Shown: positions 1,021 to 37,536 of the stretch, in pieces
Numbering within the stretch: the first letter of the stretch is position 1
Layout of the letters: every line of letters starts with the position of its first letter
Virus record (IMG/VR): IMGVR_UViG_2974647559_000001
Coordinates: 1 to 64,000 of that record
Direction: 5' to 3' (one strand)
DNA from: a virus
Lineage: Duplodnaviria > Caudoviricetes
Length of the DNA stretch: 64,000 bases
Position numbers and translations under genes: made by a program
Notes under the pieces: generated by a model
What the model saw: the letters and a program-made list of their open reading frames with translations, nothing else
The model's database searches: none
What the model was told of the DNA's origin: nothing

Positions 1021-1039
1021 GAGGGCTTTTTAGCCCTCA
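1021..1039 (-). terminator. Hairpin between nrdA and nrdB (weak terminator or processing site)
   Basis: GAGGGC-ttttta-GCCCTC overlapping the nrdA stop. Confidence 0.35.
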
Positions 1040-3882
1040 CAGCTAAGACACTCATTAAACTCAATTTTAGCACGTACCGGTACACTGTTCAATGGTTTGT
1101 CACCACCAGTCCCAAGATTTGCTCTTGTCGCAGGTTTACTACGGCAGTAGTAAAAGGTCTTAACACCACTCAACCAACCTTTAATGTGTATATCAACCAT
1201 CTCTTGTAATGTAATGTCGTTAGGTACAAAAATGTTCAAACTTTGACTTTGGCATACATACTTCTGTCGTGCTGCTGCCAGTTCTACAATCCAAGAAGGA
1301 TTTATTTCTGTCGCTGTCTTAAACACTTTCTTGGCTTCATTATCCAACCAATCTAAGTGCTGTACACTACCTTCGTTCACAATTATGTCTTTCCATACCT
1401 CTGGTGTATTCTTGCCATAAGCATCCAGAACTTTCTCAAGATATTTATTCTTGATTAAGAAGCTACCTGCCCTGCCTTGTGCATTAAACGCATTAGCTGC
1501 CCAAGGTTCTATGGATGGGCTAGTACCCACCATACTACTACTGCTTGCATTTGGTGCGATGGCCAATAAGTGGCTATTCCTCATACCACTACCGTAACAA
1601 TCGTCGCACTCCCCTCGCTCTTTCGCAAGTTGTTTACTAGCCTCTACAGCACGTTCCTTTATTGCGCCGTACAGCCTATGTGTCCATTGTATAGCAGAAT
1701 TAAACCCCCCTGTCTCAAAAGCAATATCTTTGCTTTGTAAGAAAGAGTGCCAACCCAATGTACCTAAACCTATTGCACGTTCTTTACTTGCAGAGTGTAC
1801 CGCACGTTTAAGGTGTGGTGGGGCTAGGCGGATAAAATACTCTAACACGTTATCCAGCAACCTCACCAAGTCTTGCACAATCGTAGTGTCTTTCCATTCC
1901 TCATACTTCTCTAAATTAATAGAAGATAAGCAACACACTGCTGTGCGTTTGTCTGTAGTCCTTAATGTAATTTCAGAACACTGCCCTGTTAGAATACCGT
2001 TGAATACTCCCATACCGCGTTTGCTCTCGGTGAAGCAGTATGTATCATCATAACGACCATCATCCACCACTTCAGTAATCTTAACAAACTGTGTACTTTC
2101 CCTGTTAGGTTTGTGGTCGGTGATTACTAACCGTTTAGGGTTAAAACCTAAAACATGTAAGTTGTTTATACCTGTCTGCCCTATAAGTAACCTGTAAGCT
2201 TGTTTACAGTAAAACATTCCCAACTCGCCGCTACCATCGTTCAAAGGCATCAATCGTTCACCAGCTTCAGTAGATGCTGTTACCTTTGAAGATACACCTA
2301 ACGTCTGTAACATCATTTGCACTTCTTGTAAGAAACCTTGCTCAACACTTCCAACCTGAATGGATTGGGTTTGGCCGTTCCTAGCAATTGTTCCGTCTGA
2401 ATCACACAAACCTTCAAACCACTTGATGCGACTCTCAACATCATAATCTGAACTAGGGACAAAGAACTTATCTTTTAGTAAGTGACTATGACCATACTCA
2501 CGATCTAAGTTGTCTTGCACAGACCAGTTGTGAAAAATGTCACCTAGATACCGCTTCAATTCGCGCTTATCCCCGTACAAATAAATACGTTTACCTTGTT
2601 TTGTTAAGCAACCATCGCCTGAGTAAAAACCGTTAGCATATGGATGTAGCAACGATTCATTCCCTTCAATAACAGGGAAGTCACACTTAATCAGCTTATC
2701 TCCTGCTTTCAATTCATTAGCACGTTTCTCAACAACCCATCGATTACCAGAAGTAGGGTGGCGACAAGCGATGTAAAACTTGTGGTAAGGTGTGCAAGTT
2801 AATTCAAAACCAGCATTGGTTTTAATACTTAGTAATTTCTGGTTCTCACCAGTTTTTACTACAACCGTATCACTCCACTCTTGACCATTCCAAACTGTAA
2901 CTTTTTCACCTTCTAGTTCAGATATAACCTCATAACCATTAGTAGTAAGAATTTTAGTCTCTGGAGCAACACATAAATTACTTTGACTCACACTGTATAG
3001 TGGGTGTGTAATCCAATTTGGAATATTTCGGTTAACTGTGTCTTTGAACATGATATAAGGTTCCCCTGTCTCATATCGAATGTTCATTAATTCTTCCCAC
3101 ACTTCTCTTGCATTTAGAAATCGACCTGTAGCTCCATGTTTGGGATCTATCAGTTCGTAATCTTCCCCGTTTATAACCGACATCATAAACTTATCTGTAA
3201 TGTTTACAGCATTGTTTAAATTAAAACACTTTTTATTACTATCACCACCTACGGGGTTACGCATTTGCATAAAAGCTGCAATTTCTGGGTGGTCAATATC
3301 TAAATATGCTGCCATACTACCTCTGCGAGTGGCAGTCTGCTTATAACTAAGGGTATCAGCATCGTAACCCCTCAAGTGTGCCATAACCCCTGTAGACTTC
3401 TCATCGGGAGATCGATTGGATGCGTACACACCGACACCACCACCCATCATGCTGAGCCAAGCGGCTTCACTACGAGCTTCAACTAGACCTTCTTTTGTAT
3501 CCGGTATATAACTTAAGAAACAACTTATCGGCATACCATCAGGTTCTACATTCTCTTGTAGCCACTCAGAAGCATATTCAAAATTCTCTTTATCAAAAGA
3601 AGGCCATTCCACATTTACGGCATTACTAAGCACTGGGCTTGCAAAAGTAAACCAACCCTTAGAAGCGTAGTCATAAATACGTTGTGCAAAATCATAATCA
3701 CCAAAAGAGAAACATGTTGCTGCCCTAGCGAAACCCTCTTGAGGGGAAGTTTCATGGGATTTCTTGTAGAAGCCTTTTCCTGTTAAAAGAGCAAGTCCTT
3801 GCTCTGGAATAAACTTGTCTCGGCTATAATCAATGATAATACCTAGATACTCTTGTACCGGACTATAATCTTTAGCTACCAA
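1030..3882 (-). CDS. nrdA: Ribonucleotide reductase class Ia alpha subunit, intein-containing precursor
   Basis: ATCF, SCFL, GGGVG, SNL/CSEI, AIAPNASSS, KTFYY and C-terminal CLSCEG motifs. Confidence 0.95.
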   Translation of the reverse strand: MVAKDYSPVQEYLGIIIDYSRDKFIPEQGLALLTGKGFYKKSHETSPQEGFARAATCFSFGDYDFAQRIYDYASKGWFTFASPVLSNAVNVEWPSFDKENFEYASEWLQENVEPDGMPISCFLSYIPDTKEGLVEARSEAAWLSMMGGGVGVYASNRSPDEKSTGVMAHLRGYDADTLSYKQTATRRGSMAAYLDIDHPEIAAFMQMRNPVGGDSNKKCFNLNNAVNITDKFMMSVINGEDYELIDPKHGATGRFLNAREVWEELMNIRYETGEPYIMFKDTVNRNIPNWITHPLYSVSQSNLCVAPETKILTTNGYEVISELEGEKVTVWNGQEWSDTVVVKTGENQKLLSIKTNAGFELTCTPYHKFYIACRHPTSGNRWVVEKRANELKAGDKLIKCDFPVIEGNESLLHPYANGFYSGDGCLTKQGKRIYLYGDKRELKRYLGDIFHNWSVQDNLDREYGHSHLLKDKFFVPSSDYDVESRIKWFEGLCDSDGTIARNGQTQSIQVGSVEQGFLQEVQMMLQTLGVSSKVTASTEAGERLMPLNDGSGELGMFYCKQAYRLLIGQTGINNLHVLGFNPKRLVITDHKPNRESTQFVKITEVVDDGRYDDTYCFTESKRGMGVFNGILTGQCSEITLRTTDKRTAVCCLSSINLEKYEEWKDTTIVQDLVRLLDNVLEYFIRLAPPHLKRAVHSASKERAIGLGTLGWHSFLQSKDIAFETGGFNSAIQWTHRLYGAIKERAVEASKQLAKERGECDDCYGSGMRNSHLLAIAPNASSSSMVGTSPSIEPWAANAFNAQGRAGSFLIKNKYLEKVLDAYGKNTPEVWKDIIVNEGSVQHLDWLDNEAKKVFKTATEINPSWIVELAAARQKYVCQSQSLNIFVPNDITLQEMVDIHIKGWLSGVKTFYYCRSKPATRANLGTGGDKPLNSVPVRAKIEFNECLSCEG
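1981..2973 (-). mobile_element. Intein (331 aa) with LAGLIDADG homing endonuclease in NrdA
   Basis: SNL|CVAPETKIL...GVFNGILTGQ|CSEI; LAGLIDADG-like GFYSGDG and GLCDSDG. Confidence 0.93.
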
Positions 3883-14206: not shown

Positions 14207-16411
14207 TTATTCTGTTTCTTCCAAACTTTCTTCACCATCAGCAAATTCAATCAACTTCCATGTACGTTCAATGTAATAATCATAATCAATATCCCACTGG
14301 AATTCACTTATGTCATTACATACTTTACATTTCCAGTTTGATTCAACCATGAACCGTCTATATTCGCATGGTGTTTCTACTGTATGACTAAGAGTATAAC
14401 CTTTCTTCTTGTACTTATCAATGTCTGTTTTAGCAGAAATCACAACTTCATCCATTAATTCGTGATTCACCCAAACTTCTTCGGTTTTTGTTTCAGTTAA
14501 CGGTGGCATGACTTTAACTAGATCCATACCTTTAGTGCTAATGTAATATCGACATATATTCTGTGTCTGATGGTCAACACCATTACTACCAACCATAACC
14601 AGTTTGCTACTTCTCGATACTTTTGTGCGGAGCATAAAATCATACTTGTTATCATGTTTACGTATGAATTCTTCTGGATCAGCACCTTCTGATAAGTATT
14701 TTTCAGCAGCAATTTTCACAATCAATGCTGAATGATTCTTATTATTTGGTAAATCTTTCCATTCATATGCACCTTTGGACTTTAAACTACCGTCCAATTT
14801 AACAGCTACATAACTGTTTACATCTCGAATAACCATTTTGTTATAGTCACATCTTTCTAGTGCTAATTTAGTGGTGTCCTCCCACCACTTTACAATGTCT
14901 ATACATTTCTGTTCGTCACTTCGTTTACGTTTAAATGTTAAACCGTCAGTATTGCATTGTATGATCATACAATGGTCTAACTTTAAAAGCTGTTCAACAA
15001 TCATACATAAAGAAAGTTGACCATTTACAGTAATAGCCATCGTAAACTTTGAGTCAAAGAATGGACTGTATTGGTCATTGCTCTTACCATATGTTCCATT
15101 CAGTGCTAGTTTTAACATAGCATTTTCTGCTGACTTCTTATCATAAGATTTACGGAGATTATATAAGTATTCGTATATATCACAAAACTCAACACCTAAA
15201 TGTTCAGGATACACCCTATTCTTAATAGCCAAATTAGGGTAATAAGAACTAACATCTTCGTCCTCTATGATGTATTCATCATCAGAAACTACCACATTCT
15301 TCTCTAATGAAGCATGTAAACCACCTGTGCCGTAGACATAACATAACCCATCAATTACAACATTGAGTGATTCAGCTATTCTATAATTGAACCAATACGC
15401 CTTTTTAAACCCACCACCGTCTTTCTTTGGTAACTTAGCTTTAAGTTCAATTTCTTCAACCCAACCCAAAGGGTACTGTTTTAACATTTCATCAATTTCT
15501 TTTTGTGTAGGTTTGTCCTTAAACTTAACTCTTTTGGTTGCCAGTAAAGCATATTTGGCTACGTCACCAAGTTCATGTTCTGGTATATCTGAAAATACAC
15601 CTTTCGTTTCGGTAATGCGTTGTCGTTTCAACCATTCGAGTATTGCATTGAATTCAGGTCTTTCAAACTTAACATATGGAAATATACAATCAACTAAGTC
15701 AATATAGTTACGCTTAGTCTGTCTAACCTTACCGCTTTCGTAACACTTGATACCAGCTTTTTCTAACTCCATTACAAAGTATTCAGCACCAATCTTGGTA
15801 TCATTATAATTTAGAGCGTTCATACCATAATCAGTTACCATCTTATGTCTGAAGTCAACTTGCTCCATGCTAACTTGAAAGAATTTAATTGTTTCCAATA
15901 CATCATGTTTGTTGTATCGAATCAAAATATCTTTCTCTACATCAGACAGTTTCTTACCTACAGGAAATGGTAAGTCCTCTATGTTATCTGATCGGTTATT
16001 GAACTCAATCATCTTCAGTGATGTAGCTTTAGCTCTGTTGTCGTAATGGTGTATTTTGTACAGGTCTATCTGTTTTAAAAACACATCCTTTTCACGTACA
16101 ACATACTGCCACTTGTTGTCAGTGTTACCTGACTTGATTATCTTACAAGTCATGTTATACAAGTCTAACGCTGTACTTTTCTTATTAGTTAACAAGTGGT
16201 GTAATAAAGGATAGTCGTAGCCAACATTATTGAAGCCAACCATATATCCATTTTTTCTACGTACATCACGTAAATATTCAAACAGTTGTTCACGTTGGTC
16301 TTTTCTATCACTAATTTCAAAAACCTTAATAACCCTTTCTTGCATATCAGCAATACAACAAGTCCAAATATTAGGATAACTTTCTAGGTCGTACACCCAA
16401 TAATTATGCAC
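14207..16411 (-). CDS. Divergent family B DNA polymerase with 3'-5' exonuclease
   Basis: YDLE, FNNVGYD, YNKHD exo motifs; DVSSYYP, KLALNGTYG, NTDG polymerase motifs. Confidence 0.88.
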   Translation of the reverse strand: MHNYWVYDLESYPNIWTCCIADMQERVIKVFEISDRKDQREQLFEYLRDVRRKNGYMVGFNNVGYDYPLLHHLLTNKKSTALDLYNMTCKIIKSGNTDNKWQYVVREKDVFLKQIDLYKIHHYDNRAKATSLKMIEFNNRSDNIEDLPFPVGKKLSDVEKDILIRYNKHDVLETIKFFQVSMEQVDFRHKMVTDYGMNALNYNDTKIGAEYFVMELEKAGIKCYESGKVRQTKRNYIDLVDCIFPYVKFERPEFNAILEWLKRQRITETKGVFSDIPEHELGDVAKYALLATKRVKFKDKPTQKEIDEMLKQYPLGWVEEIELKAKLPKKDGGGFKKAYWFNYRIAESLNVVIDGLCYVYGTGGLHASLEKNVVVSDDEYIIEDEDVSSYYPNLAIKNRVYPEHLGVEFCDIYEYLYNLRKSYDKKSAENAMLKLALNGTYGKSNDQYSPFFDSKFTMAITVNGQLSLCMIVEQLLKLDHCMIIQCNTDGLTFKRKRSDEQKCIDIVKWWEDTTKLALERCDYNKMVIRDVNSYVAVKLDGSLKSKGAYEWKDLPNNKNHSALIVKIAAEKYLSEGADPEEFIRKHDNKYDFMLRTKVSRSSKLVMVGSNGVDHQTQNICRYYISTKGMDLVKVMPPLTETKTEEVWVNHELMDEVVISAKTDIDKYKKKGYTLSHTVETPCEYRRFMVESNWKCKVCNDISEFQWDIDYDYYIERTWKLIEFADGEESLEETE

Positions 16412-16422
16412 TACAAACCTCC

Positions 16423-18294
16423 TTAAAATTTACTGGTAACTACATCGTCGTCACCGTTTAGTATCTCACCAGTAGTATAATCAATATGTTCATCATTTAC
16501 AACGTTGATGTCTTGTTTATAATCTGGATTCAGTTGCCTAGCACCAGAAAAGAAATCATCATAGTCGTATTGCTGTCTGGTTTCTTGGTCATAATACAGT
16601 TTGCATATTTCACCAGTGCTACCCCCTCGACATTTTGGTACATCTACTGTTGTTGTATTGCGCTCTATTGGACACTCTGCCATTTTATTGCGATTCAATA
16701 CAATGTTAATATCAGCAGATTGAACAAATGTACCACTACCTAGTATGTCATATTCACTTACCTTACGAACCTTACCATCTTTATCAGTGGGTGGTTTACG
16801 AGTGTGTAGAACATTGATGAACACAACACCTTCTTTCTTCATAAGTTTTTGCCACATCATAAAGTTTTCTTGTTGGTCAATAGGTAAAGACCTTAACCAG
16901 TCAGTCAATGGGTCAAATATAAACATTCGACTACCATACTTCTTCATGCTTATTTCAACTTGTTTCTTTAATGTTTCAACAGTACCATTACGTTCATCTA
17001 CGATAAGAAATCTACTGACACCATCTTCGGCATATACTAAGTCATTACACATTTCCTTAATGTCTGGTTGGTTCAAGTAACGGATAGCGTCATCACCATC
17101 TTTGAACCAACTAAGGTTTTTCTTCAAGTATAAGGAATAATGATCTGTTAATAACTCACCAGCGGTTCGTTCCAAACTAATGATAGTGGGTACTAATGGG
17201 CTGTTGAAAAACCAATGCTGCTCTAAGTTATCAGTGAAGTAACTCTTACCTATTGACGTGTCACCAATCACGTTAACAATAGCACCAGTGGACTTTATAC
17301 CACCCCTCATTGCTTCTTGCAATCTATGTAAATATGCTGGTAATGTAATCTTTGGTGCTGTTAAGAATTCTTCAACTTCAGCCATTGCTTCAGCGGCAGA
17401 CTTAATACCGTTGTTTACAAAATCTTTGGCGTTAAAGAAATCTCTACTTATTTGTACTTCTTTACCGTCCTCAAGTAGTTTATGTGGGTCCTTATCAGAC
17501 CAAGTAACAATTTTAACTTTATTGGCTGGTAAAACCTTACACACTGCTTCAGTTGCCTGCTTACCTTTTTCGTCATTGTCTAAACCAAGATATATTTCTT
17601 CGTATTGGTCTAACCACTCGTATTGTGCCGCACATTGTTTTGCAGAACTACCTTCACCTGTTGTTGGTGAAACAACGTGTGTGTACTTCTGTAAAGCCTG
17701 ATACGCTGCGGCCTTATCGTTTTCACCACCGACAATTAGTATACGTTTACCAGCAGACTTGTATCTAAACTGACCAGATAGTTGACTACCTCTACCAGTG
17801 CAACCAACCTTATTCCAGCTTTTAGGTAATATACGAATCTTAAAACCAGTTACTTTATCGTCCTCTGTCTCAGGGTAATACACTTCAACAGGAACATTCT
17901 TGTTGTTGCGTTTTACCATATGACCAAAGAACTTCATTACTTCTGGAGTAATACTACGGTATGGTCTGTCAGGAAAACCAACTGTATCTTTCAGTTGCCC
18001 AATTTGTTCAGAGGTGAGTGGTTCAACTTTTGGTGCAAGGATTAATTTAATTTCACTACGAACCTCACCTTCTTCAATACCTAATTCCTTTGCATGTGAA
18101 GAACTATGTACCTGATGTTCAGAGAAGCTTTGGTTACAAGACCAACAATACCCATCATAATAAATATTACCCTGTGCATCTTCTTTTTGCCAAATACTCA
18201 ATGCGTCACTCGAATTACAACTATCCTTATCGTCAAACTCATTAGCTATACAGCTAAACTTCTGGTTGATTCTCTGACCACTTTCTTTACTCAC
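16423..18294 (-). CDS. Primase-helicase (T7 gp4/Twinkle-like)
   Basis: Zn-binding CWSC, TOPRIM GENDK and LDND, Walker A GDTSIGKS. Confidence 0.9.
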   Translation of the reverse strand: MSKESGQRINQKFSCIANEFDDKDSCNSSDALSIWQKEDAQGNIYYDGYCWSCNQSFSEHQVHSSSHAKELGIEEGEVRSEIKLILAPKVEPLTSEQIGQLKDTVGFPDRPYRSITPEVMKFFGHMVKRNNKNVPVEVYYPETEDDKVTGFKIRILPKSWNKVGCTGRGSQLSGQFRYKSAGKRILIVGGENDKAAAYQALQKYTHVVSPTTGEGSSAKQCAAQYEWLDQYEEIYLGLDNDEKGKQATEAVCKVLPANKVKIVTWSDKDPHKLLEDGKEVQISRDFFNAKDFVNNGIKSAAEAMAEVEEFLTAPKITLPAYLHRLQEAMRGGIKSTGAIVNVIGDTSIGKSYFTDNLEQHWFFNSPLVPTIISLERTAGELLTDHYSLYLKKNLSWFKDGDDAIRYLNQPDIKEMCNDLVYAEDGVSRFLIVDERNGTVETLKKQVEISMKKYGSRMFIFDPLTDWLRSLPIDQQENFMMWQKLMKKEGVVFINVLHTRKPPTDKDGKVRKVSEYDILGSGTFVQSADINIVLNRNKMAECPIERNTTTVDVPKCRGGSTGEICKLYYDQETRQQYDYDDFFSGARQLNPDYKQDINVVNDEHIDYTTGEILNGDDDVVTSKF

Positions 18295-19755: not shown

Positions 19756-21246
19756 TTAACTCCAAAGTCGATCACGGATAGTTGAGAATGTTTCTTCTTT
19801 GTAGAAGTTACCACTAGAGTAAACTACCTCCAGTAAACCTTCTTGCTCTTGTTCAAACGATTGTTGGTCGTGTAAAATAAAATTGTTACCTTCTTTTTCG
19901 ACACGTAATAGACCTTTGGCAGATTTCTTCATACCATCATCAGTTTTAGGGTCTTTAGATAGCTCATACAACTTACCGTCAACAATAGCAGCAGTGGCTT
20001 TCACGGCCATACCTGCACTATCTCGACTTAAATATTGACTAGTAAAACTTCCAACACCAAATACCACGTTTGTGGAGGCAAAACCTTTGCTTGCTAACCG
20101 TTTGAATATCTCTTTGGCACGTTCCAACGTAATAGAGTCACCATAAATTAAACCCACACGTTCATGTAAATGTTTAAAACCAAGTTCATTCTCAGTGCCA
20201 CCAAACACTTCCCATAAACACTCAACAGCACCTTTATATTCCGGTGAACCTTTTGGTGCGTCAATATCACCACACAACACTTTAACTGGGCAACCAGAGT
20301 CGGGGCGGAATACAACTTTAGCCAAACCAATTTCATTAACCTGCCGGTTAAGAATATCGTCTTTAAGTTCTGTAGCAAACTCAGTGACTACTCGGAAGAA
20401 GTCTAGTGTATCAGCAATAATAGATACAATACCAGTTGGGTAATCCTGTGTAATCCATTTACGATATGTTTCTAATTCACCATTCACCGCGATTCCAGTG
20501 GAAGCTAAACTATGTTCACTCGCGGGGACTGATGTAGCAATAAACTCTTTTGTAATATCAACACCATAGTACTTTTCCAAATATGGCAGTGCTGGAATTG
20601 TATCAGTACCATTACTTGACAGCAAGAACCCTGCTGCACAAGCTGCCGCATCTTCCCATCCACTCATGCCACGAAATTCAAAACCATGTATCTGGAACTG
20701 TGTACCATCAGTCGAACCCGTCGTCTTGGTTGCCCAATCATTAGTAAGCTTCCTGTACTCACGTATAATTGTAGCCACTGTAGCAGGCTTCCACAACTGT
20801 GCAGACAAGTATGTCTCTAGGTAATTAGTCAACCAAGCAAACCGATTGTCCGTGTTGCGAATAGTAAAGAATGGCACTTTAATATCTACGCGACTACCTT
20901 CTGGTAGAGACTTGACCTGAATAGGTAAATAGCCTAAATCATGTAGCTCTGCAAAGTGGTCCATTCCTACAGCACCAACCCCAAGGTAAGCATCAAATAG
21001 ACGCTTAGTTTCAGCTAGCACTTCTTCTTTATTGCGACTGAAAAACTCCTTATCCCATAGGTTATGCATTTGTTTCAGTACAGCTTGCAGACCAAACCAG
21101 ACAATCTTATCATCAAAATCTTCGTGGTTTACTGGTAAATATTTACTAGAACGTGGTGTCATGTTCGAGTAAATGCTTTCAGTACCTTCGGTCATAAAAC
21201 CTTTGTGACTTAGTTTGTAGCTGTCTGTTAAAAATAATGGGTTCAT
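19756..21246 (-). CDS. NAMPT-family protein; probable Namat of NARP1
   Basis: TDSYKLSH, HGFEFRG, PASEHS, FRPDSG, LIYGDSIT, KKSAKG. Confidence 0.9.
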   Translation of the reverse strand: MNPLFLTDSYKLSHKGFMTEGTESIYSNMTPRSSKYLPVNHEDFDDKIVWFGLQAVLKQMHNLWDKEFFSRNKEEVLAETKRLFDAYLGVGAVGMDHFAELHDLGYLPIQVKSLPEGSRVDIKVPFFTIRNTDNRFAWLTNYLETYLSAQLWKPATVATIIREYRKLTNDWATKTTGSTDGTQFQIHGFEFRGMSGWEDAAACAAGFLLSSNGTDTIPALPYLEKYYGVDITKEFIATSVPASEHSLASTGIAVNGELETYRKWITQDYPTGIVSIIADTLDFFRVVTEFATELKDDILNRQVNEIGLAKVVFRPDSGCPVKVLCGDIDAPKGSPEYKGAVECLWEVFGGTENELGFKHLHERVGLIYGDSITLERAKEIFKRLASKGFASTNVVFGVGSFTSQYLSRDSAGMAVKATAAIVDGKLYELSKDPKTDDGMKKSAKGLLRVEKEGNNFILHDQQSFEQEQEGLLEVVYSSGNFYKEETFSTIRDRLWS

Positions 21247-21255
21247 ATATTCTCC

Positions 21256-22062
21256 TTATTTACCTAAATTAAAATTCAACACATCAGTTTGGTTTACATA
21301 ATTACCAACTGTGTGCCAACAATAGATATTATCTATCTTGTCTTTGAAGATGTCAAGCCCTTTTGCTGCAATTAAATGTGTTACGTATAAATCAACAATA
21401 GCTCCTAGCGACTTAAGCTTCTCTGCTAGCGGAATGAAGGTGCCGCCCGCATCCATTAAATCATCTACAATCAACAACTTACAACCAGTTAAGTCAACAT
21501 CAGTGTCTAGTGCTGTCTCAACAATACGTCCCGTAGAAACATCCCGCACCTTAGTTGCAGTGATTACTGGCATACCTAACTCATATATCTTCTTTAATGC
21601 ACCTTTATCTGGTGCAACCACATAGTCATACTGCTTTAAATTATGTACCACTTCACTAATTGCAATATACTGAGGCATATCATTTAAACCACAATAGTCT
21701 ACCCAATCTGGATTATGCGAATCTACAGTTCGTACTTCATCAAACCCTTGAGTAATAATCTCAAGGAACACCTCTAGTGGTAGAGGATTGCCGTGTTCAA
21801 ACACCCTGTCTGCTCTAGCAAAAGGACAGTACGGAATGTTTAAACCAACCTTATATTCTGTGCTGCTATTAGCATAACCTAGCGCACTCCTAACCAGCAG
21901 AACTTCCATCAAGATATCTTTTACTGGTGTAATTGGGTCAACTGTAACCCAAGCAGTTTTAAATTGTGGTGGGCAATCAATTAGTTTACAAGTATTGGCA
22001 CCATCACTAAATTCTAACCAATCTATTTTGATTGGTTTGTTGTCAATTGTTAAACGAATCAT
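21256..22062 (-). CDS. PRPP-synthetase-family protein; probable Adps of NARP1
   Basis: FSDG, PYCPFARADR, VAPDKGA, IVDDLMDAGGT. Confidence 0.88.
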   Translation of the reverse strand: MIRLTIDNKPIKIDWLEFSDGANTCKLIDCPPQFKTAWVTVDPITPVKDILMEVLLVRSALGYANSSTEYKVGLNIPYCPFARADRVFEHGNPLPLEVFLEIITQGFDEVRTVDSHNPDWVDYCGLNDMPQYIAISEVVHNLKQYDYVVAPDKGALKKIYELGMPVITATKVRDVSTGRIVETALDTDVDLTGCKLLIVDDLMDAGGTFIPLAEKLKSLGAIVDLYVTHLIAAKGLDIFKDKIDNIYCWHTVGNYVNQTDVLNFNLGK

Positions 22063-22566
22063 TTAACCCTCCAACTTATAAATAACAACATCTTTAACAT
22101 AAGGAACTACCAGATGCTCAATCAATTCTAACACAATATTCCAATCTCCACCAGCACGATCTGACGCCATTTTGTATGGGACACCAATTGTAACATTAAG
22201 TGGATAGATAGGCCATTCTTCATCCAATTCAAACTGTATTACACGGTAACAATGAGATAATGCAGAAGCTATAGCACCATAACTTACATAGCGCTTTTTA
22301 TTATACCCATAAAACTCTTGCCCTATCAGATTGAGAACTCTCCCACCTTCGATACAATCACCTAAGAAATGCTTAAGTGTCCTGCGTTCTTGTAACATAT
22401 CATAACGTCTACGGTAAGCTAAATAGGCATCTGGAATACGAGCCTTAATCTCCTTAGCTACACCACTTCCCATAACACCTTGTGCGTTACAACAATGTGC
22501 AATAAAGTCCACCTCACCATCAAGCAAAGCATCTACAACATTTCCAGTTCTGTGAATAATACCCAT
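22063..22566 (-). CDS. Macrodomain (ADP-ribose binding/hydrolase) protein
   Basis: AHCCNAQGVMGSGVAKEIK, PYKMASDRAGGDW; ATG at 22566 after GGAG. Confidence 0.85.
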   Translation of the reverse strand: MGIIHRTGNVVDALLDGEVDFIAHCCNAQGVMGSGVAKEIKARIPDAYLAYRRRYDMLQERRTLKHFLGDCIEGGRVLNLIGQEFYGYNKKRYVSYGAIASALSHCYRVIQFELDEEWPIYPLNVTIGVPYKMASDRAGGDWNIVLELIEHLVVPYVKDVVIYKLEG

Positions 22567-22577
22567 ATCACCCTCCA

Positions 22578-22683
22578 ATTTAACCTATCTACAAGCGCCT
22601 ACAATCAATTATACAGTCATACCCTAACCAACGTACTACTTACCCCATAAAACCTCTCATAGACGCTCTACGGTTGTTTAAAT
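22578..22683. repeat. ~106-bp intergenic pseudo-palindrome E1
   Basis: ATTTAAC...CAACGTAC (offset 51)...GTTTAAAT. Confidence 0.65.
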
Positions 22684-24269: not shown

Positions 24270-25577
24270 TTATTTCCTTTTAACAACACAGTTATTTCCA
24301 CCAACAACCACTTGGTATGCCTTGTACATATTAGCTTCTGCAATATCTGCATAGTCCTCTTGAACAATAACACTGTCGTGTATTGGTACAAGGAGGCGAT
24401 CATCTTCTACTGCACGCTCTAGCATGTAATCCATAAGACTGGATTCGATATTCATTAAAAATGTAGCTTTCTTGGCAAAGAAGAAGTCCAATAGGTAAGC
24501 ATTCCTATCCATTAACATATCCAACATCTTACGGATAATTGGAAACTCTTGCCACTCACCTCTTTGCTTTGCATCATCAATCTTTGCTTGCATACCAGAG
24601 GATTTTAGTTCCCCTAGTGTGGCGTAGTAAGCTGTATCAAAGTTATCGGCATTAAATAGGCACATTAGACCCACTTTAGCTAAATCTCTCATTACTTTAG
24701 GACAATAACCTTCTATCTGCACACCATAAACATCAAAATCTGGCGCTAATTCTTGTCCAACTAAATCAGCAGCAATTCTAGGCCATAATTGGCTGTAGTC
24801 AATCTCAACAGTCTGTATGTCATTAATAAATATCTGCCTACGATTCTCTTTGTTGAGTAAATCCGACACATCAGAACCAGTCATGAAAACCCTCCCGCCT
24901 TCTTTGAGTGATGAGTTATTAAAGATTTTACGTAATGCTACATGGAATCTATCATCTTGAATGTTTATTTTCCCTTTGTCAAGTGCAGTATTAAAAGCGT
25001 TAAGAACATCAACCAGATGCTTCTCTTTCTCTGTTAACCTGATACCGATAGGTTTACCATTGCTGTCTCTCACCTCTATTACGCTGTCTTTAATAGTAAA
25101 ATCCTTAACATTTTCGGACACTTGTTTAATTATTTTCTCACAAAGGTATAGTTTACTTGTCTCAAACGACTGAGGAACCATCCTAAACTTATCCTTACCT
25201 TCTGAATCGACACCTACATGAGTTAGCCGGTAGTCAGTTGCACCCCCTTTCTCTGTAATCGAATGAGTATAATTCTCCAAGTAACTTAACACTATCTTCA
25301 TGTTTGTATAACTTATTTTCCTACCCGTGTTGTTTCCATTATAAATCACTGGAACTGAGTAAGCATTCTCATCTAATGTAAGTGTTATGTAAGGTCTACC
25401 TTTGTTGACAATGTAGGCAGTATTTAGGATCATGCAGTAGCAACACCTCTTTATGTCTGTCATTCTTTTTGCTGTAATCTTAGTACCCGTGAAGTCAGTT
25501 AGGTACTTAATAACATCCTTGTACAGCGTATCACCAACTAATGAAAGTTTCTTATTTAATTTATAATCTAATATCAT
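24270..25577 (-). CDS. Orphan right-hand polymerase-like protein (T7 RNAP/PolA-like motifs)
   Basis: GGRVF; EIDYSQLWPR (motif A-like); RDLAKVGLMCLFNA (B-like); PIHDSVIV (C-like). Confidence 0.6.
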   Translation of the reverse strand: MILDYKLNKKLSLVGDTLYKDVIKYLTDFTGTKITAKRMTDIKRCCYCMILNTAYIVNKGRPYITLTLDENAYSVPVIYNGNNTGRKISYTNMKIVLSYLENYTHSITEKGGATDYRLTHVGVDSEGKDKFRMVPQSFETSKLYLCEKIIKQVSENVKDFTIKDSVIEVRDSNGKPIGIRLTEKEKHLVDVLNAFNTALDKGKINIQDDRFHVALRKIFNNSSLKEGGRVFMTGSDVSDLLNKENRRQIFINDIQTVEIDYSQLWPRIAADLVGQELAPDFDVYGVQIEGYCPKVMRDLAKVGLMCLFNADNFDTAYYATLGELKSSGMQAKIDDAKQRGEWQEFPIIRKMLDMLMDRNAYLLDFFFAKKATFLMNIESSLMDYMLERAVEDDRLLVPIHDSVIVQEDYADIAEANMYKAYQVVVGGNNCVVKRK

Positions 25578-25679
25578 GTTTATGCCTCTTAAACCAACTA
25601 TAAGAGTTGGGATTCTCCCAATAACGGATAAATATTAAAAATACCAATAACCACAAGGGCTAGAGGTATTGTTTGCTTC

Positions 25680-25889
25680 CTATTCTTTGTCACAAAATAC
25701 CACTGTTTCTTTGTCTAAAATAACATCATAATAATACGATGCTGACAGTAGATACTCCACCCACACAGATCGAGTGAAGTCGTCGCTACCGTAAGGGCAA
25801 ACCTTCTCCATCATCTCAATCCAATCTTTAGGTTGTAAACCACATACTCTCCAAGGTAAAACTTTAGTTGTGTTGTCAATGTATAGCAT
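25680..25889 (-). CDS. Hypothetical protein
   Basis: 69-aa ORF with GAGG RBS. Confidence 0.55.
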   Translation of the reverse strand: MLYIDNTTKVLPWRVCGLQPKDWIEMMEKVCPYGSDDFTRSVWVEYLLSASYYYDVILDKETVVFCDKE

Positions 25890-26031
25890 ATATAGTCACC
25901 TCTCAATTATCACAGCAAGAGAAATTCCCACTGTCTATACCTAATTTTACCACAGGTAACACATAAATAGAAGCCGCATAGACGTCCAAATCAGTCAAGA
26001 AATAATATAAATAAATTTTATCTATTGGTTG

Positions 26032-26060
26032 TTGACACGGTAATTTGGAAGGTGTATTAT
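26032..26060 (+). promoter_or_regulatory. Sigma70-type promoter opening the rightward early region
   Basis: TTGACA-17-TATTAT. Confidence 0.85.
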
Positions 26061-26084
26061 TGGCACATCGAAACGAGATAGGAG

Positions 26085-27979: not shown

Positions 27980-28972
27980 ATGAAAGGTTACAAAGCTTTT
28001 AATCGTGTAAAGGGTTGCGACAAATCTGGTATGTGTCGTGGCATGTTGTTCGAGGAAGGGGAAATCTATGAAATAACAGGAGAACTCAAGATTTACAGTA
28101 ACGGCCTACATTTTTGTGAATACTTAGTCCAGACCTTTGAATATTATGAGTATGACCATTCAAAGACTATTTATGCGGAAGTAGAGGCAATCGGAGATTT
28201 AGATGTAGAAGATTTGTTGGAGTTTAAGTATGCAACCAACAAACTCAAAGTAGTTAAATTTTTAACACAATCAGAAGTAGAAGCCATGTTCTCTGACGAC
28301 AAACGGAATACTGGTAATCAGAATACTGGTAATCAGAATACTGGTTTTCAGAATACTGGTAATCGAAATACTGGTAATCAGAATACTGGTAATTGGAATA
28401 CTGGTAATTGGAATACTGGTGATTGGAATACTGGTAATCGGAATACTGGTAATCAGAATACTGGTTTTCAGAATACTGGTGATCAGAATACTGGTTTTCT
28501 GAATACTGGTGATCGGAATACTGGTAATCAGAATACTGGTAATTGGAATACTGGTAATCGGAATACTGGTGATTGGAATACTGGTAATCGGAATACTGGT
28601 GATTGGAATACTGGTTATTGGAATACTGGTAATCAGAATACTGGTGATCAGAATACTGGTAATCGGAATACTGGTAATTGGAATACCTCAGATAGAAACA
28701 CAGGGTTTTTCAATACGAAACCTATTAGTACCATTTTAGTATTCAATGTTGAAACTTCCTTAGATGAGTGGGGTAGCTGCGAAAAACCTAATTTTGTTTA
28801 TTTTAACTTAGTGGGTTGTGGTGACTACAAAAAGTCATTCATTGCGAGTTTTAACAAAACAAAAAAATCAGATGTTGAGTTGCTATTAAAACTGCCAAAC
28901 TTTGATTACAAAGTATTTGAAGAAATTTCTGGAATATCTGAGCAAATGATTATGGATAAATTGAGCCAATAG
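27980..28972 (+). CDS. GxxNT pentapeptide-repeat protein
   Basis: KGYKAF..GLHFC N-terminal domain, ~27 xxNTG units, LPNFD C-terminal cap. Confidence 0.85.
   Translation: MKGYKAFNRVKGCDKSGMCRGMLFEEGEIYEITGELKIYSNGLHFCEYLVQTFEYYEYDHSKTIYAEVEAIGDLDVEDLLEFKYATNKLKVVKFLTQSEVEAMFSDDKRNTGNQNTGNQNTGFQNTGNRNTGNQNTGNWNTGNWNTGDWNTGNRNTGNQNTGFQNTGDQNTGFLNTGDRNTGNQNTGNWNTGNRNTGDWNTGNRNTGDWNTGYWNTGNQNTGDQNTGNRNTGNWNTSDRNTGFFNTKPISTILVFNVETSLDEWGSCEKPNFVYFNLVGCGDYKKSFIASFNKTKKSDVELLLKLPNFDYKVFEEISGISEQMIMDKLSQ
28301..28715 (+). repeat. 15-bp coding tandem repeat (core GAATACTGGT)
   Basis: Seen directly, about 27 units with no spacers. Confidence 0.95.
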
Positions 28973-34882: not shown

Positions 34883-35851
34883 TTAATCAAAATAATATTT
34901 CTCCAGCGCCTTAAACATAACAGACAGGTCACTCTGTTCTGGTAAATCACTTTGCTTTAATAGAACCATACACTCTTCGTATAATTCATGTATTGTAGAC
35001 ATCACTTCATCCACATCAGTAACAAAACCACGTTTCACTGCTTTAATGTACTCAGCATTCTTTAAGGGGAATGTAATGTTTCGTTCTAACACCAATTCCT
35101 TTAATTGAACAAGAACCCGCAGTGCATGACTAAGAGATTTAGTGTCCAATCCTTTTGTCTCACCATCTTCTGTACGCTTACCATAACGTGCAATCTCTCT
35201 GCACAGGGCATCTGTTAGTTGTCGCACTTCCCAAGTGTGGATATATTTCTTACCACACACTTCGAGATATTTCTGTTCGTGGTCTGTTACAACAGTGACA
35301 TTTTTAATGTACTTGTATTCTTGTGGTAGATGATTAGCTACATTAGCCACTACATCGTTAATACCAACAGATTCAGCAAACGCTAACAGAGACTTCATTT
35401 CAACTAGACGGTCAATCTTGTTTGAATATTTGTGTGTATGTGTCTTAATGTAACCTACCATACCTCGCATTGTCTTAGACAACAATAACCCACGGTGTTG
35501 TTTGATTGTTTCCCATAATGGTGTGATAGTCATTACCACAGCATCTGGGGCAAACAACAGATCAATACAGTTTGTGTCACAAGATTCCGCGCTAAGTAAG
35601 AAGGATGGGAGTGATTTAAGCTCCAGTTCAATATCCAAATCATCATTCTTATAGTTATATGTCTTGGTAGCTTTGCCTAGCAGTAAATCTGTCTTACTTG
35701 GTGCATAGACAGCCTTCACGTCAATGTCACTCTCAGGTCTATCTAATCCGTACAAATGTGAGCCGTGGAAAGACATAAAGATAATATCTTTGTTCTTTGT
35801 TTGACTCGATAACCAATCTTTTTGTTCTTGCGTTAATTTAGGTACGTTCAT
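34883..35851 (-). CDS. Pol-beta-superfamily nucleotidyltransferase (T4 NrdC.11-like)
   Basis: GSHLYG...SDID motif; KSLSHALR. Confidence 0.8.
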   Translation of the reverse strand: MNVPKLTQEQKDWLSSQTKNKDIIFMSFHGSHLYGLDRPESDIDVKAVYAPSKTDLLLGKATKTYNYKNDDLDIELELKSLPSFLLSAESCDTNCIDLLFAPDAVVMTITPLWETIKQHRGLLLSKTMRGMVGYIKTHTHKYSNKIDRLVEMKSLLAFAESVGINDVVANVANHLPQEYKYIKNVTVVTDHEQKYLEVCGKKYIHTWEVRQLTDALCREIARYGKRTEDGETKGLDTKSLSHALRVLVQLKELVLERNITFPLKNAEYIKAVKRGFVTDVDEVMSTIHELYEECMVLLKQSDLPEQSDLSVMFKALEKYYFD

Positions 35852-35860
35852 CTTTCCTCC

Positions 35861-36280
35861 TTAATTCATTAATCGTTTAGATTGTAACAGTCTTATAAAT
35901 TCTACATCGTTGTTTGTTAAATAGTATTTCTCTAGGTAGTCCCACCATTCATGTCCCTCTACTTTAGGTGCATCATATATCTTAGCTGGCAAGATAACCC
36001 CGACATTGGTTAGTGCCATATTTAAAGCATCTTGTTCTTCCTTAAACCATGCAAAAGGGTATGGTAGTGTGTTCAAACTACTAATCACCTCAAACAAATC
36101 TTTCTGCATGCCCCCATTCAGTACAACAGCGGTTTTGTGATTAATAGCCCAGTCGTATAACATCTCTCTCTCTGGACAAGCATGTTGGTACTTAACAAAC
36201 ATCTCCGCTGTTGTGTGTTGACTCTGGATACCAGCATGAATGCCTTGTAAGTAAAAGTTCTGAAAGAAATAAGCCCTCAT
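35861..36280 (-). CDS. Pth2-like peptidyl-tRNA hydrolase homologue
   Basis: GIHAGIQSQH, WAINHKTAVVL, FKEE..ALN...NVG pattern. Confidence 0.5.
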   Translation of the reverse strand: MRAYFFQNFYLQGIHAGIQSQHTTAEMFVKYQHACPEREMLYDWAINHKTAVVLNGGMQKDLFEVISSLNTLPYPFAWFKEEQDALNMALTNVGVILPAKIYDAPKVEGHEWWDYLEKYYLTNNDVEFIRLLQSKRLMN

Positions 36281-37536
36281 TTTGACCTCCATTTGTTTTG
36301 TATTTTCTTAATTTCTGCTATACGTGTTGACCTAACCAATTCACCAATAATAGCACCTTGTTTTCCTGACTGCAATGCTGGGAGTGTAATTTGTTTTGTA
36401 TCTAACGACAAAACAGCTTGTAAACACTCTCTAATGAAGTCTGCTTGTGGGTAAGGCTTACTCTCATACTCTTTAATTTGCTCTGGGGTGTAACCTCTGC
36501 CTCTTGCATCGGAAATACACACGTTCAAGAACATCTCAAATCGTTCAGGTTGTTGGATTGCCCGTGTATCTTCAAGCATCTTCATCATTGTGTTTGCTTT
36601 CAATGCACCGTTCCCACCCCTACCTAAACAGGAGTGTACTTTTGTGTGATATTTGCTAGAAATAACTGCCAAATCTCTATAATTGTTTGGGACTTTCCAT
36701 GTATCACAGAACTCATGTATCAACTCCACCCCAGCTTCTTCGTGACCATGCAGTTTACCGTATTTCTGGTGCATTATCGGTTTACCAAAATCGTGACAGA
36801 AAGCAGCAAACGTCACAACAGGATTATTGAAGGTTTTAGCTGCATAGTCCATCACCATGTAAGTGTGAACGTCTGTCCAAATTTCTGGATGATGTTCTTC
36901 TGGTTGTGGGGTTCTTTCCATACCATATAAGATTGGAAATATATCAAAACGGGACAACCAACGAAAGAAATTACTAGGCTTATTTTCACCCATAGCTTTT
37001 TCTATTTCAATCCATACACGTTCCGGTGAACACTTAAGTATTTCGTCTGCAACCTCGGAAGAATATTCAATCAACTGTGCGGGCAGATTTCTAAAATCTG
37101 GATACCTTGCAAGAAAACGTCCAGCGCGAAGAACACGAATAGGATCTTCCTTAAAAGCTTCCGATACAGGACGTAGTAACTTCGCTTGTATATCGGTGAT
37201 ACCGTTATGGGGATCAATATACACCTTATTCTCAAGGTCATACGCAATTGCGTTGATAGTAAGGTCACGCCTTAGTAAATCTTCCTCTAACGTAACATCT
37301 TTCCATGCTGTTTCAAACCCATTGTAACCGACACCAACTTTGCGCTCAGTACGGGCTAATGCGTACTCTTCACCTGTAATTGGGTGAAGGAAAACTGGAA
37401 AGTCTAACCCTACTTGCTTGTAACCAAGGGAAACCATTTCTTCAGGGGAAGATCCAACCACAACATAGTCACGGTCTTTTGGTTCCAAACCCATCAGCAT
37501 ATCCCGCACAGCGCCGCCAACTAAATATATCTTCAC
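36277..37536 (-). CDS. cca: Class II tRNA nucleotidyltransferase (CCA-adding) with HD domain
   Basis: VGGAVRD..DRD, RRDLTINA, EDPIRVLR, HDFGK HD motif. Confidence 0.92.
   Translation of the reverse strand: MKIYLVGGAVRDMLMGLEPKDRDYVVVGSSPEEMVSLGYKQVGLDFPVFLHPITGEEYALARTERKVGVGYNGFETAWKDVTLEEDLLRRDLTINAIAYDLENKVYIDPHNGITDIQAKLLRPVSEAFKEDPIRVLRAGRFLARYPDFRNLPAQLIEYSSEVADEILKCSPERVWIEIEKAMGENKPSNFFRWLSRFDIFPILYGMERTPQPEEHHPEIWTDVHTYMVMDYAAKTFNNPVVTFAAFCHDFGKPIMHQKYGKLHGHEEAGVELIHEFCDTWKVPNNYRDLAVISSKYHTKVHSCLGRGGNGALKANTMMKMLEDTRAIQQPERFEMFLNVCISDARGRGYTPEQIKEYESKPYPQADFIRECLQAVLSLDTKQITLPALQSGKQGAIIGELVRSTRIAEIKKIQNKWRSK

Follow-up and report, generated by a model that had tools for sequence, protein, structure and literature searches.

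A minimal polymerase of the Pol I-type fold in a barbavirus is a member of the divPolA2 family

Results

We analysed a gene that encodes a 435-amino-acid (aa) protein with polymerase motifs, found in a 64,000-nucleotide (nt) stretch of a Caudoviricetes genome (IMG/VR record IMGVR_UViG_2974647559_000001, positions 1 to 64,000; hereafter the window). The gene is the archetype of divPolA2, a published family of divergent PolA proteins, so that it is already known, and its product already bears a polymerase label in the public record. Taking the evidence together, we lean towards the view that the protein is an accessory single-chain polymerase of the family-A fold, which probably uses deoxynucleoside triphosphates (dNTPs) and is auxiliary to replication. 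That it is an active, template-dependent polymerase is very likely. A preliminary description of this DNA, made from the letters alone, had proposed a second nucleotide polymerase and favored an RNA polymerase (RNAP); the structural part of this proposal stands, but its preference for RNAP is not supported.

The protein has a Pol I-type palm-fingers fold

The four motifs that had been reported are present in the order described: GGRVF (aa 227-231), EIDYSQLWPR (aa 258-267), motif B (aa 297-309, RDLAKVGLMCLFN) and IHDS (aa 399-402). The structure prediction and Foldseek search that the preliminary description had called for were run, and its structural inference proved right. The AlphaFold2 model, built on a 65-sequence alignment, is very confident (predicted local distance difference test score, 95.7; predicted template modelling score, 0.89) and contains the palm-fingers core of the Pol I-type fold. 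Foldseek returned 128 matches in the PDB at E ≤ 1e-3, the top ones all being Pol I-type enzymes. In the structural comparison, the highest figure was obtained for the apicoplast Pol (14.8; root-mean-square deviation (rmsd) 3.8 over 240 residues), followed by Aquifex Pol I (13.8), yeast mitochondrial RNAP (13.1), Pol nu (12.8), Klenow (12.7), T7 RNAP (12.7, with an rmsd of 9.2), T7 DNA polymerase (DNAP; 11.9), DpoZ (11.0), Pol theta (10.7), N4 mini-vRNAP (8.3) and N4 RNAPII (7.2). As had been claimed, the model has no exonuclease, neither 3'-5' nor 5'-3', and the canonical thumb is also missing. The place of the Pol I exonuclease and thumb is occupied by the N-terminal domain, which may function as a thumb or as a DNA-binding head.

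Compared with the family-A DNAPs (E. coli Pol I Klenow, Aquifex Pol I, apicoplast Pol and T7 gp5), the protein is about half the size, lacking the exonuclease domain and the canonical thumb. The steric-gate Glu of these enzymes is replaced by Trp/His, their motif B Tyr by Asn and their motif C Glu by Ser. In the Pol I motif B, RxxxKxxxFxxxYG, the aromatic and Tyr positions are taken by M305 and N309. The T7-like single-subunit RNAPs, including the split, minimal N4 RNAPII, share the superfamily fold with the protein, together with the HDS of motif C and the hairpin G-R-x-Y/F, and its small size recalls N4 RNAPII.

At the level of sequence the protein falls below all Pfam DNA_pol_A (PF00476) thresholds, yet the Pol I-type palm-fingers fold is present. 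The single protein had no relevant match in sequence searches of Pfam, NCBIfam and the PDB, and neither it nor any of 65 relatives matched Pfam DNA_pol_A or RNA_pol at E ≤ 10. The sole PDB sequence match of the family profile was Aquifex Pol I (E 0.07), which means that no PDB polymerase chain was matched significantly; in this alignment GGR...DY is paired with TGR...DFSQIELR, and HDS with HDE. The register of motif A was taken from the alignment of the family profile with the Pol I DFSQIELR, and motif C aligned with the VHDE of Pol I and of T7 DNAP. R229 is aligned with the TGR of Aquifex Pol I; the Arg of the Pol I TGR and of the T7 RNAP RGRVY contacts the primer/template. Profiles specific to the two subtypes described below (E-type and H-type) found no polymerase among the PDB sequences. 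Using hhalign, the family profile gave no significant alignment with the single sequences of T7 RNAP or T7 DNAP, and only motif C lined up, with T7 DNAP; this DNAP-versus-RNAP comparison was therefore uninformative.

The gene belongs to the published divPolA2 family

The preliminary description had regarded the gene as an orphan, which is wrong. An exhaustive HMMER scan of 1.8 billion cluster representatives found 1390 clusters (at 50% identity) that match the family at E ≤ 1e-3, including one in Vibrio phage ICP1. PHROG 4756, annotated as 'unknown function', matches the 435-aa protein from end to end (E 4e-65). Homologs were detected by tblastn in 105 phage records, every one annotated 'hypothetical protein', from phages of Vibrio (including every ICP1 isolate), Aeromonas, Pseudoalteromonas and Shewanella. 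In BFVD, the top match of the model is A0A4P8NBL2, a 'DNA polymerase' of Rheinheimera phage vB_RspM_Barba31A that is 100% identical to our protein, and the window therefore comes from a barbavirus. The virus genome is complete (84,608 bp), with one copy of the polymerase gene.

The family was described by Yutin, Tolstoy, Mutz, Wolf, Krupovic and Koonin (Yutin et al. 2024, Virol J 21:200; PMC11348598), who first found divPolA2 in 110 barbaviruses, i.e. Rheinheimera phage Barba18A and its relatives, which have genomes of 80-85 kb and each carry a regular PolB too. It was later found in other Caudoviricetes, at times in two to three copies. According to the same authors, divPolA2 has an active palm, no exonuclease, no thumb homologous to those of known DNAPs and an N-terminal globular domain of unknown affinity, and could be a repair DNAP or an RNAP; their exemplar is AUR84708 of Vibrio phage 1.063.O (PMC11348598). 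In our tblastn search, this exemplar (MG592441.1) was matched at E 1e-17 with 86% query cover, the match lying inside the coding sequence (CDS) AUR84708.1, and the two proteins align over their full length with common invariant residues. Homology to the exemplar, a palm with the catalytic residues of motifs A, B and C, and a separate replicative PolB, the marks of divPolA2, were all found here, and nothing essential differs between the published family and the window protein. The separation from PolB had been claimed before and holds: the family-B replicase lies at 14207-16411 and shares 65.8% identity with that of Vibrio phage 1.084.O. Our literature search found the name divPolA2 in no other paper and no biochemical work on its members, the family being known there as a computational description only.

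Four metagenomic relatives exceed the family norm by 200-400 aa, namely P0138 (811 aa) and P0117, P0128 and P0144 (610-621 aa). Their extra regions had no Pfam, PHROG, NCBIfam or Atlas match, and a word search, which is weak evidence, found no longer fused forms of the family.

Conserved catalytic residues and two active-site subtypes

Conservation was counted in an alignment of 142 relatives, each of at least 340 aa and mostly 20-35% identical. D260, R246 and D401 are present in all 142, R229, K301 and Y284 in 141, R297 in 137 and D282 in 125. The near-invariance of the motif residues at this divergence means that the motifs are not due to chance. Position 265, where the window protein has Trp, is variable (H 101, E 29, Q 4, W 2 and F 2 of 142) and never Gly; position 305 is Leu, Met or Ile; and position 309, a Tyr in both Pol I and T7 RNAP, is Asn in 126 of the 142. 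Motif C reads HDS in the majority and (F/Y)DE in about 15%.

The family comprises two active-site subtypes. The majority, to which the window protein belongs, is of the form 'H/W ... N ... HDS', whereas about 20% are of the form 'E ... (F/Y)DE', at times with the motif B Tyr. The latter subtype, which includes the ICP1 copy and the published exemplar, looks plainly Pol I-like in its sequence. This split is not in the published description (PMC11348598). Some phages carry paralogs: Vibrio phage 5P1c (OZ196883.1; 29547-30818 and 127371-128669) has one with an E-gate and HDA and one with an H-gate and HDS, and phages PhAER-3 and J2-1 have two H-type copies each. The catalytic residues are kept in all paralogs examined.

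Active-site residues favor DNA over RNA synthesis

Residue equivalences to Pol I and T7 RNAP were taken from the sequence register of the Aquifex Pol I alignment, not from 3D superposition. The steric gate is a Glu in Pol I (Klenow E710) and a Gly in T7 RNAP (G542), in which Y639 and H784 read the 2'-OH. In motif B of the family, RxxxK is kept, Leu, Met or Ile stands at the position of Pol I F762, and the prevalent Asn at that of Pol I Y766 and T7 RNAP Y639. The helix before motif C (G-x-x-L-Q-N-I-D-S) has Gln in 110 of the 142 relatives, and Met in the window protein, in the slot of Pol I Q849 and T7 RNAP H784. Where T7 RNAP has its ribonucleotide-selecting set of Gly, Tyr and His, the family thus has W/H/E, N and M/Q. 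In this register, therefore, both 2'-OH-reading residues of T7 RNAP are missing and a bulky side chain stands at the gate of DNAPs. Because of this bulky gate residue, the Asn and Met/Gln counterparts of Y639 and H784 and the dNTP preference of the comparable enzyme CCPol (below), the enzyme probably makes DNA, or at least prefers dNTPs.

The strongest alternative is a minimal single-subunit RNAP, which would serve a subset of middle or late genes or supply an origin RNA primer, as T7 RNAP does at the T7 primary origin. Such an enzyme would fill a gap, as barbaviruses and ICP1 have no recognised RNAP or sigma factor, yet we consider it unlikely. Not only are the counterparts of Y639 and H784 Asn and Gln/Met, but Gly never occurs at the gate, not even a weak match to Pfam RNA_pol was obtained with any member, and no promoter-length motif recurs in the regions searched below, so that the earlier preference for RNAP finds no support. 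Superposition leaves an rmsd of ~9 Å on RNAPs versus ~4 Å on DNAP cores, some members possess the complete Pol I-like set of E, Y and DE, and a viable ICP1 isolate bears a frameshifted copy.

A T7-style RNAP would have a long conserved promoter in front of many genes. Among 54 upstream regions no 12-mer occurred in more than two and only the Shine-Dalgarno sequence was recurrent, and the upstream regions of the late module had no common motif, several having sigma70-like -35/-10 pairs; promoters that are degenerate or structured, like those of N4, would be missed by this search. The genome gave no Pfam match to sigma70_r2 or PolA, and the control of the genome-wide search with Pfam RNA_pol (PF00940) was uninformative. 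Near the polymerase gene, a candidate promoter TTGACA-17-TATTAT (11/12) is located on the + strand at 26032-26060, and a candidate extended -10, TGgTAAAAT, was seen by eye on the - strand at 25944-25952. As a class, promoter-like sites are not enriched over shuffles (63 found versus 60.5 expected), and these two are therefore mere candidates and weak evidence either way.

Relation to TV-Pol and CCPol

TV-Pol was defined by a minimal core consisting of an N-terminal antiparallel two-helix unit, an invariant Arg in the hairpin, two palm Asp, and a fingers Asp with RxxxK (Iyer, Abhiman, Aravind 2008, Biol Direct 3:39; PMC2579912). Its members, among them Microcystis phage Ma-LMM01 gp030, Sputnik V13 and the CCPol of SCCmec, were predicted to be primase-polymerases (PMC2579912). 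All core features are present in the window protein: the helices H9-30/H36-59, R229, D260/D401, D282 as the counterpart of the 'conserved aspartate' of the fingers, and R297xxxK301. When searched against the Ma-LMM01 genome, the family profile gave TV-Pol gp030 as the sole, weak match (E 0.026), over the segment from GGR to motif A, and hhalign of this profile with gp030 homologs yielded a P of 3.6e-4 and a probability of 37% over 86 columns. R229 (aligned with R235 of the Ma-LMM01 TV-Pol), R246, D260, the gate His, K301 and N309 are in register with the gp030 homologs, and gp030 and the family share, also in register, GxRxY, Q..R, (E/N)-x-D-x4-H, K-x7-N and HD(G/S). This weak but in-register sequence link between divPolA2 and TV-Pol is suggestive, not proof. 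In contrast to TV-Pol, neither the window nor 11 related loci yielded a D5-type helicase, as a fusion or as a neighbour, or an integrase, resolvase or transposase, and in the window protein the helical hairpin is followed by an additional alpha/beta module.

CCPol is a trimmed A-family polymerase without a working exonuclease. Its gene sits next to that of a replicative helicase on a mobile element, and it is the one enzyme of its kind that has been characterised biochemically (Bebel et al. 2020, eLife 9:e55478; Rice 2023, PMC10061031). It is template-dependent and prefers dNTPs, with some terminal transferase activity (eLife 9:e55478). It initiates chains only with its small partner MP, an oligonucleotide-binding (OB)-fold protein, and its preferred priming site is next to its own operon (eLife 9:e55478; PMC10061031). 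CCPol keeps the sugar-selectivity residues of Pol I, whereas the window protein is without them. A small conserved neighbour that could correspond to MP was not found by sequence, although such partners are reportedly hard to find in this way: blastp neighbour clustering revealed no conserved partner gene across 12 loci, and the six flanking small open reading frames (ORFs) fall only into PHROG and Pfam families of unknown function, with no match to a single-stranded DNA-binding (SSB) or OB family.

A possible role in replication initiation

A role at initiation or priming is conceivable for the enzyme, though doubtful. Early bidirectional replication of ICP1 begins 'near the 60 kb position' (mapped in 1-kb bins), and the divPolA2 homolog is located at 57.7-61.8 kb, depending on the isolate, i.e. 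within ~2 kb of the mapped early origin. Such proximity has a ~4% chance for a random gene, and origins and early genes cluster anyway. One may propose, as a rather speculative reading, that divPolA2 proteins are origin-proximal initiator polymerases, a third kind of replicative primase with a family-A fold, TV-Pol-like, with a DNA-binding N-terminal head. They would then synthesize the initial chain, of DNA or of RNA, when barbaviruses, ICP1 and many marine myophages begin theta replication.

Several observations weigh against an essential role of this kind. In ICP1 isolate 2017_Dha_P (MW794164.1; L015:489-1870), the homolog is interrupted after codon 332 by an insertion of 77 nt that looks like a tandem duplication. 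The resulting frameshift precedes motif C, which is lost from the main frame, and the gene is annotated as two CDSs; this is either an artefact of the assembly or a natural loss-of-function allele carried by a viable isolate. In addition, our phage has its own Toprim primase, and a search for iterons or repeats beside the polymerase gene in the window gave only two-copy matches at chance level. The GC-skew minima at ~26 kb and ~47 kb were rejected as origin evidence because they coincide with changes of gene orientation. Alternatively, the enzyme might act in repair, through gap filling, short-patch or lesion-bypass synthesis, which we rate as a rather unlikely role.

Gene features, expression and genomic neighbourhood

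The features of the gene are listed in Table 1. Its ribosome-binding site, AAGAGG, lies 6 nt 5' of the start codon. Two short hairpins, AATACC...GGTATT followed by a T-run and CCAACT...AGTTGG, were seen by eye at 25600-25665 (-), in the 102-nt gap between the small ORF and the start codon of the polymerase gene; they could be an attenuator or an operator.

Table 1. Coordinates of the polymerase gene, its motifs and the adjacent divergent region in the window
Feature	Position	Strand	Remarks
Polymerase CDS	24270..25577	-	435 aa; divPolA2 family, phrog_4756; minimal family-A fold; ATG start; stop TAA 24270-24272
N-terminal domain, aa 1-165	25083..25577	-	antiparallel helical hairpin aa 9-59 and alpha/beta module aa 60-165
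Palm-fingers catalytic core, aa 166-435	24273..25082	-	
GGRVF beta-hairpin, R229	24885..24899	-	counterpart of Pol I 'TGR' and T7 RNAP 'RGRVY'
Motif A, EIDYSQLWPR	24777..24806	-	catalytic D260 24798-24800; W265 24783-24785 at Pol I steric-gate position
D282-V-Y284 (family consensus DPY)	24726..24734	-	acidic/aromatic pair opening the fingers
Motif B / O-helix, R297-x3-K301-x3-M305-x3-N309	24651..24689	-	
Motif C, IHDS	24372..24383	-	catalytic D401 24375-24377; beta-hairpin aa 397-406
Divergent intergenic region	25890..26084		5' of leftward operon (small ORF 25680-25889, then polymerase gene); candidate host-type promoters

The gene had been placed near the 5' end of the leftward arm, which is correct: it comes second after the divergent switch and heads a leftward block of 43 genes. 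This block also contains the PolB replicase and, ~6 kb downstream of the polymerase gene, a Toprim-DnaB primase-helicase (16423-18294). The position recurs in other loci, where a divergent switch is followed by a few small ORFs and then by the polymerase gene, which opens a block running towards the primase-helicase and the replicase. The polymerase itself is the sole gene conserved across the 12 loci, which fits the 'variable neighbourhood' of Yutin et al. In one locus, a homolog with 64% identity is followed by a DnaB-like helicase and by a PolA rather than a PolB, and the accessory polymerase has therefore been kept while the replicase was swapped.

In the published infection transcriptome of Barba18A, the early/replication cluster includes every gene of gp001-gp061. 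If genes are counted from gp030, which encodes the macrodomain, their order suggests that gp036 ('conserved hypothetical protein') corresponds to the window polymerase gene, which would put the latter in the early-expressed block, with the replication genes. The gp036 transcript peaks at the first time point with a moderate abundance (log counts per million (logCPM) 11.5 versus 15.4 for PolB). Also in this transcriptome, gp041, annotated 'Pentapeptide', is among the most abundant early transcripts (logCPM ~15). The window encodes at 27980-28972 (+) a 330-aa protein with a long run of pentapeptide-like repeats, 'NTGN(Q/W/R)'.

Other genes near the polymerase gene or its homologs were recorded. 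At a distance of 1.7 kb downstream of the polymerase gene, consecutive macrodomain, PRPS-like and NAMPT-like genes (19756-22578, -) form an NAD+ reconstitution set that resembles NARP1. The divPolA2 gene of Aeromonas phage PhAER-3 is immediately followed by prs2 (L011:7271-8044). On a metagenomic phage contig, an IS605 OrfB/TnpB (Cas12f-like) gene lies ~3 kb downstream of a divPolA2 homolog (L006:10029-11114; L007:10062-11114). Elsewhere in the window, the large subunit of ribonucleotide reductase (1030-3882, -) contains an intein with a LAGLIDADG homing-endonuclease domain (Pfam Ribonuc_red_lgC, LAGLIDADG_3, Intein_splicing), and a CCA-adding/poly(A) polymerase-type enzyme with an HD domain (36277-37536) is found near an RlaP-like pol-beta nucleotidyltransferase (34883-35851); this pair (34883-37536, -) suggests an RNA or tRNA repair cassette.

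Discussion

Apart from the RNAP considered above, two further alternatives to an accessory replication polymerase deserve comment. The protein might be a non-replicative specialist, e.g. a template-independent, terminal transferase-like enzyme, or a counter-defence enzyme that produces or alters a nucleic acid and is encoded among the early accessory genes. Its variable neighbourhood, made up mostly of small early ORFs of unknown function, its position 1.7 kb upstream of the NAD+ set, the adjacent prs2 in PhAER-3, the differing number of paralogs between phages, the loss of the gene in one ICP1 isolate and the terminal transferase activity of CCPol would all agree with this. However, the residues that contact template and primer in templated polymerases (R229, R246 and the R/K of the O-helix) are invariant, no defence or counter-defence family is matched, the linkage to NAD+ genes is not conserved across other loci, and lytic lineages of long standing, such as ICP1, have retained the family, so we regard a specialist as quite improbable. 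A catalytically dead structural or regulatory relic, as the loss of the exonuclease and canonical thumb, the non-canonical motif B and the lack of a Pfam polymerase match might suggest, is practically ruled out by the conservation of both catalytic Asp, R246, R229 and K301 in all or all but one of the 142 relatives at 20-35% identity, and of the catalytic residues in the paralogs.

We therefore return to the accessory polymerase. divPolA2 is carried beside a replicative polymerase by the Rheinheimera barbaviruses and by many Vibrio, Aeromonas and Pseudoalteromonas myophages, including ICP1. Its members would add nucleotides in a template-directed, two-metal-ion reaction via D260 and D401, without proofreading and probably with low processivity. 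PolB would be the bulk replicase, and divPolA2 neither a bulk replicase nor a T7-style general transcriptase. More speculatively, the enzyme may carry out auxiliary DNA synthesis linked to replication, or start chains near the origin in the manner of the TV-Pol/CCPol-type primase-polymerases. If the initiator reading is true, the His/Trp 'gate' subtype could be an adaptation to dinucleotide initiation or to a relaxed choice of sugar.

To the published description, this analysis adds the two subtypes, the missing ribonucleotide-selecting residues of T7 RNAP and the lack of a T7-style repeated promoter, as well as the position in the early block, the absence of a conserved neighbour, the link to TV-Pol, the proximity to the ICP1 origin and the frameshifted ICP1 copy. 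The divPolA2 proteins are among the smallest natural polymerases of the Pol I/T7 RNAP fold and are very widespread, being carried also by ICP1, the best-studied predator of Vibrio cholerae. Whether they make DNA or RNA and whether they can start chains would define the minimal functional core of the polymerase superfamily. Their activity could explain how replication starts in these phages, and it could yield a compact enzyme for biotechnology.

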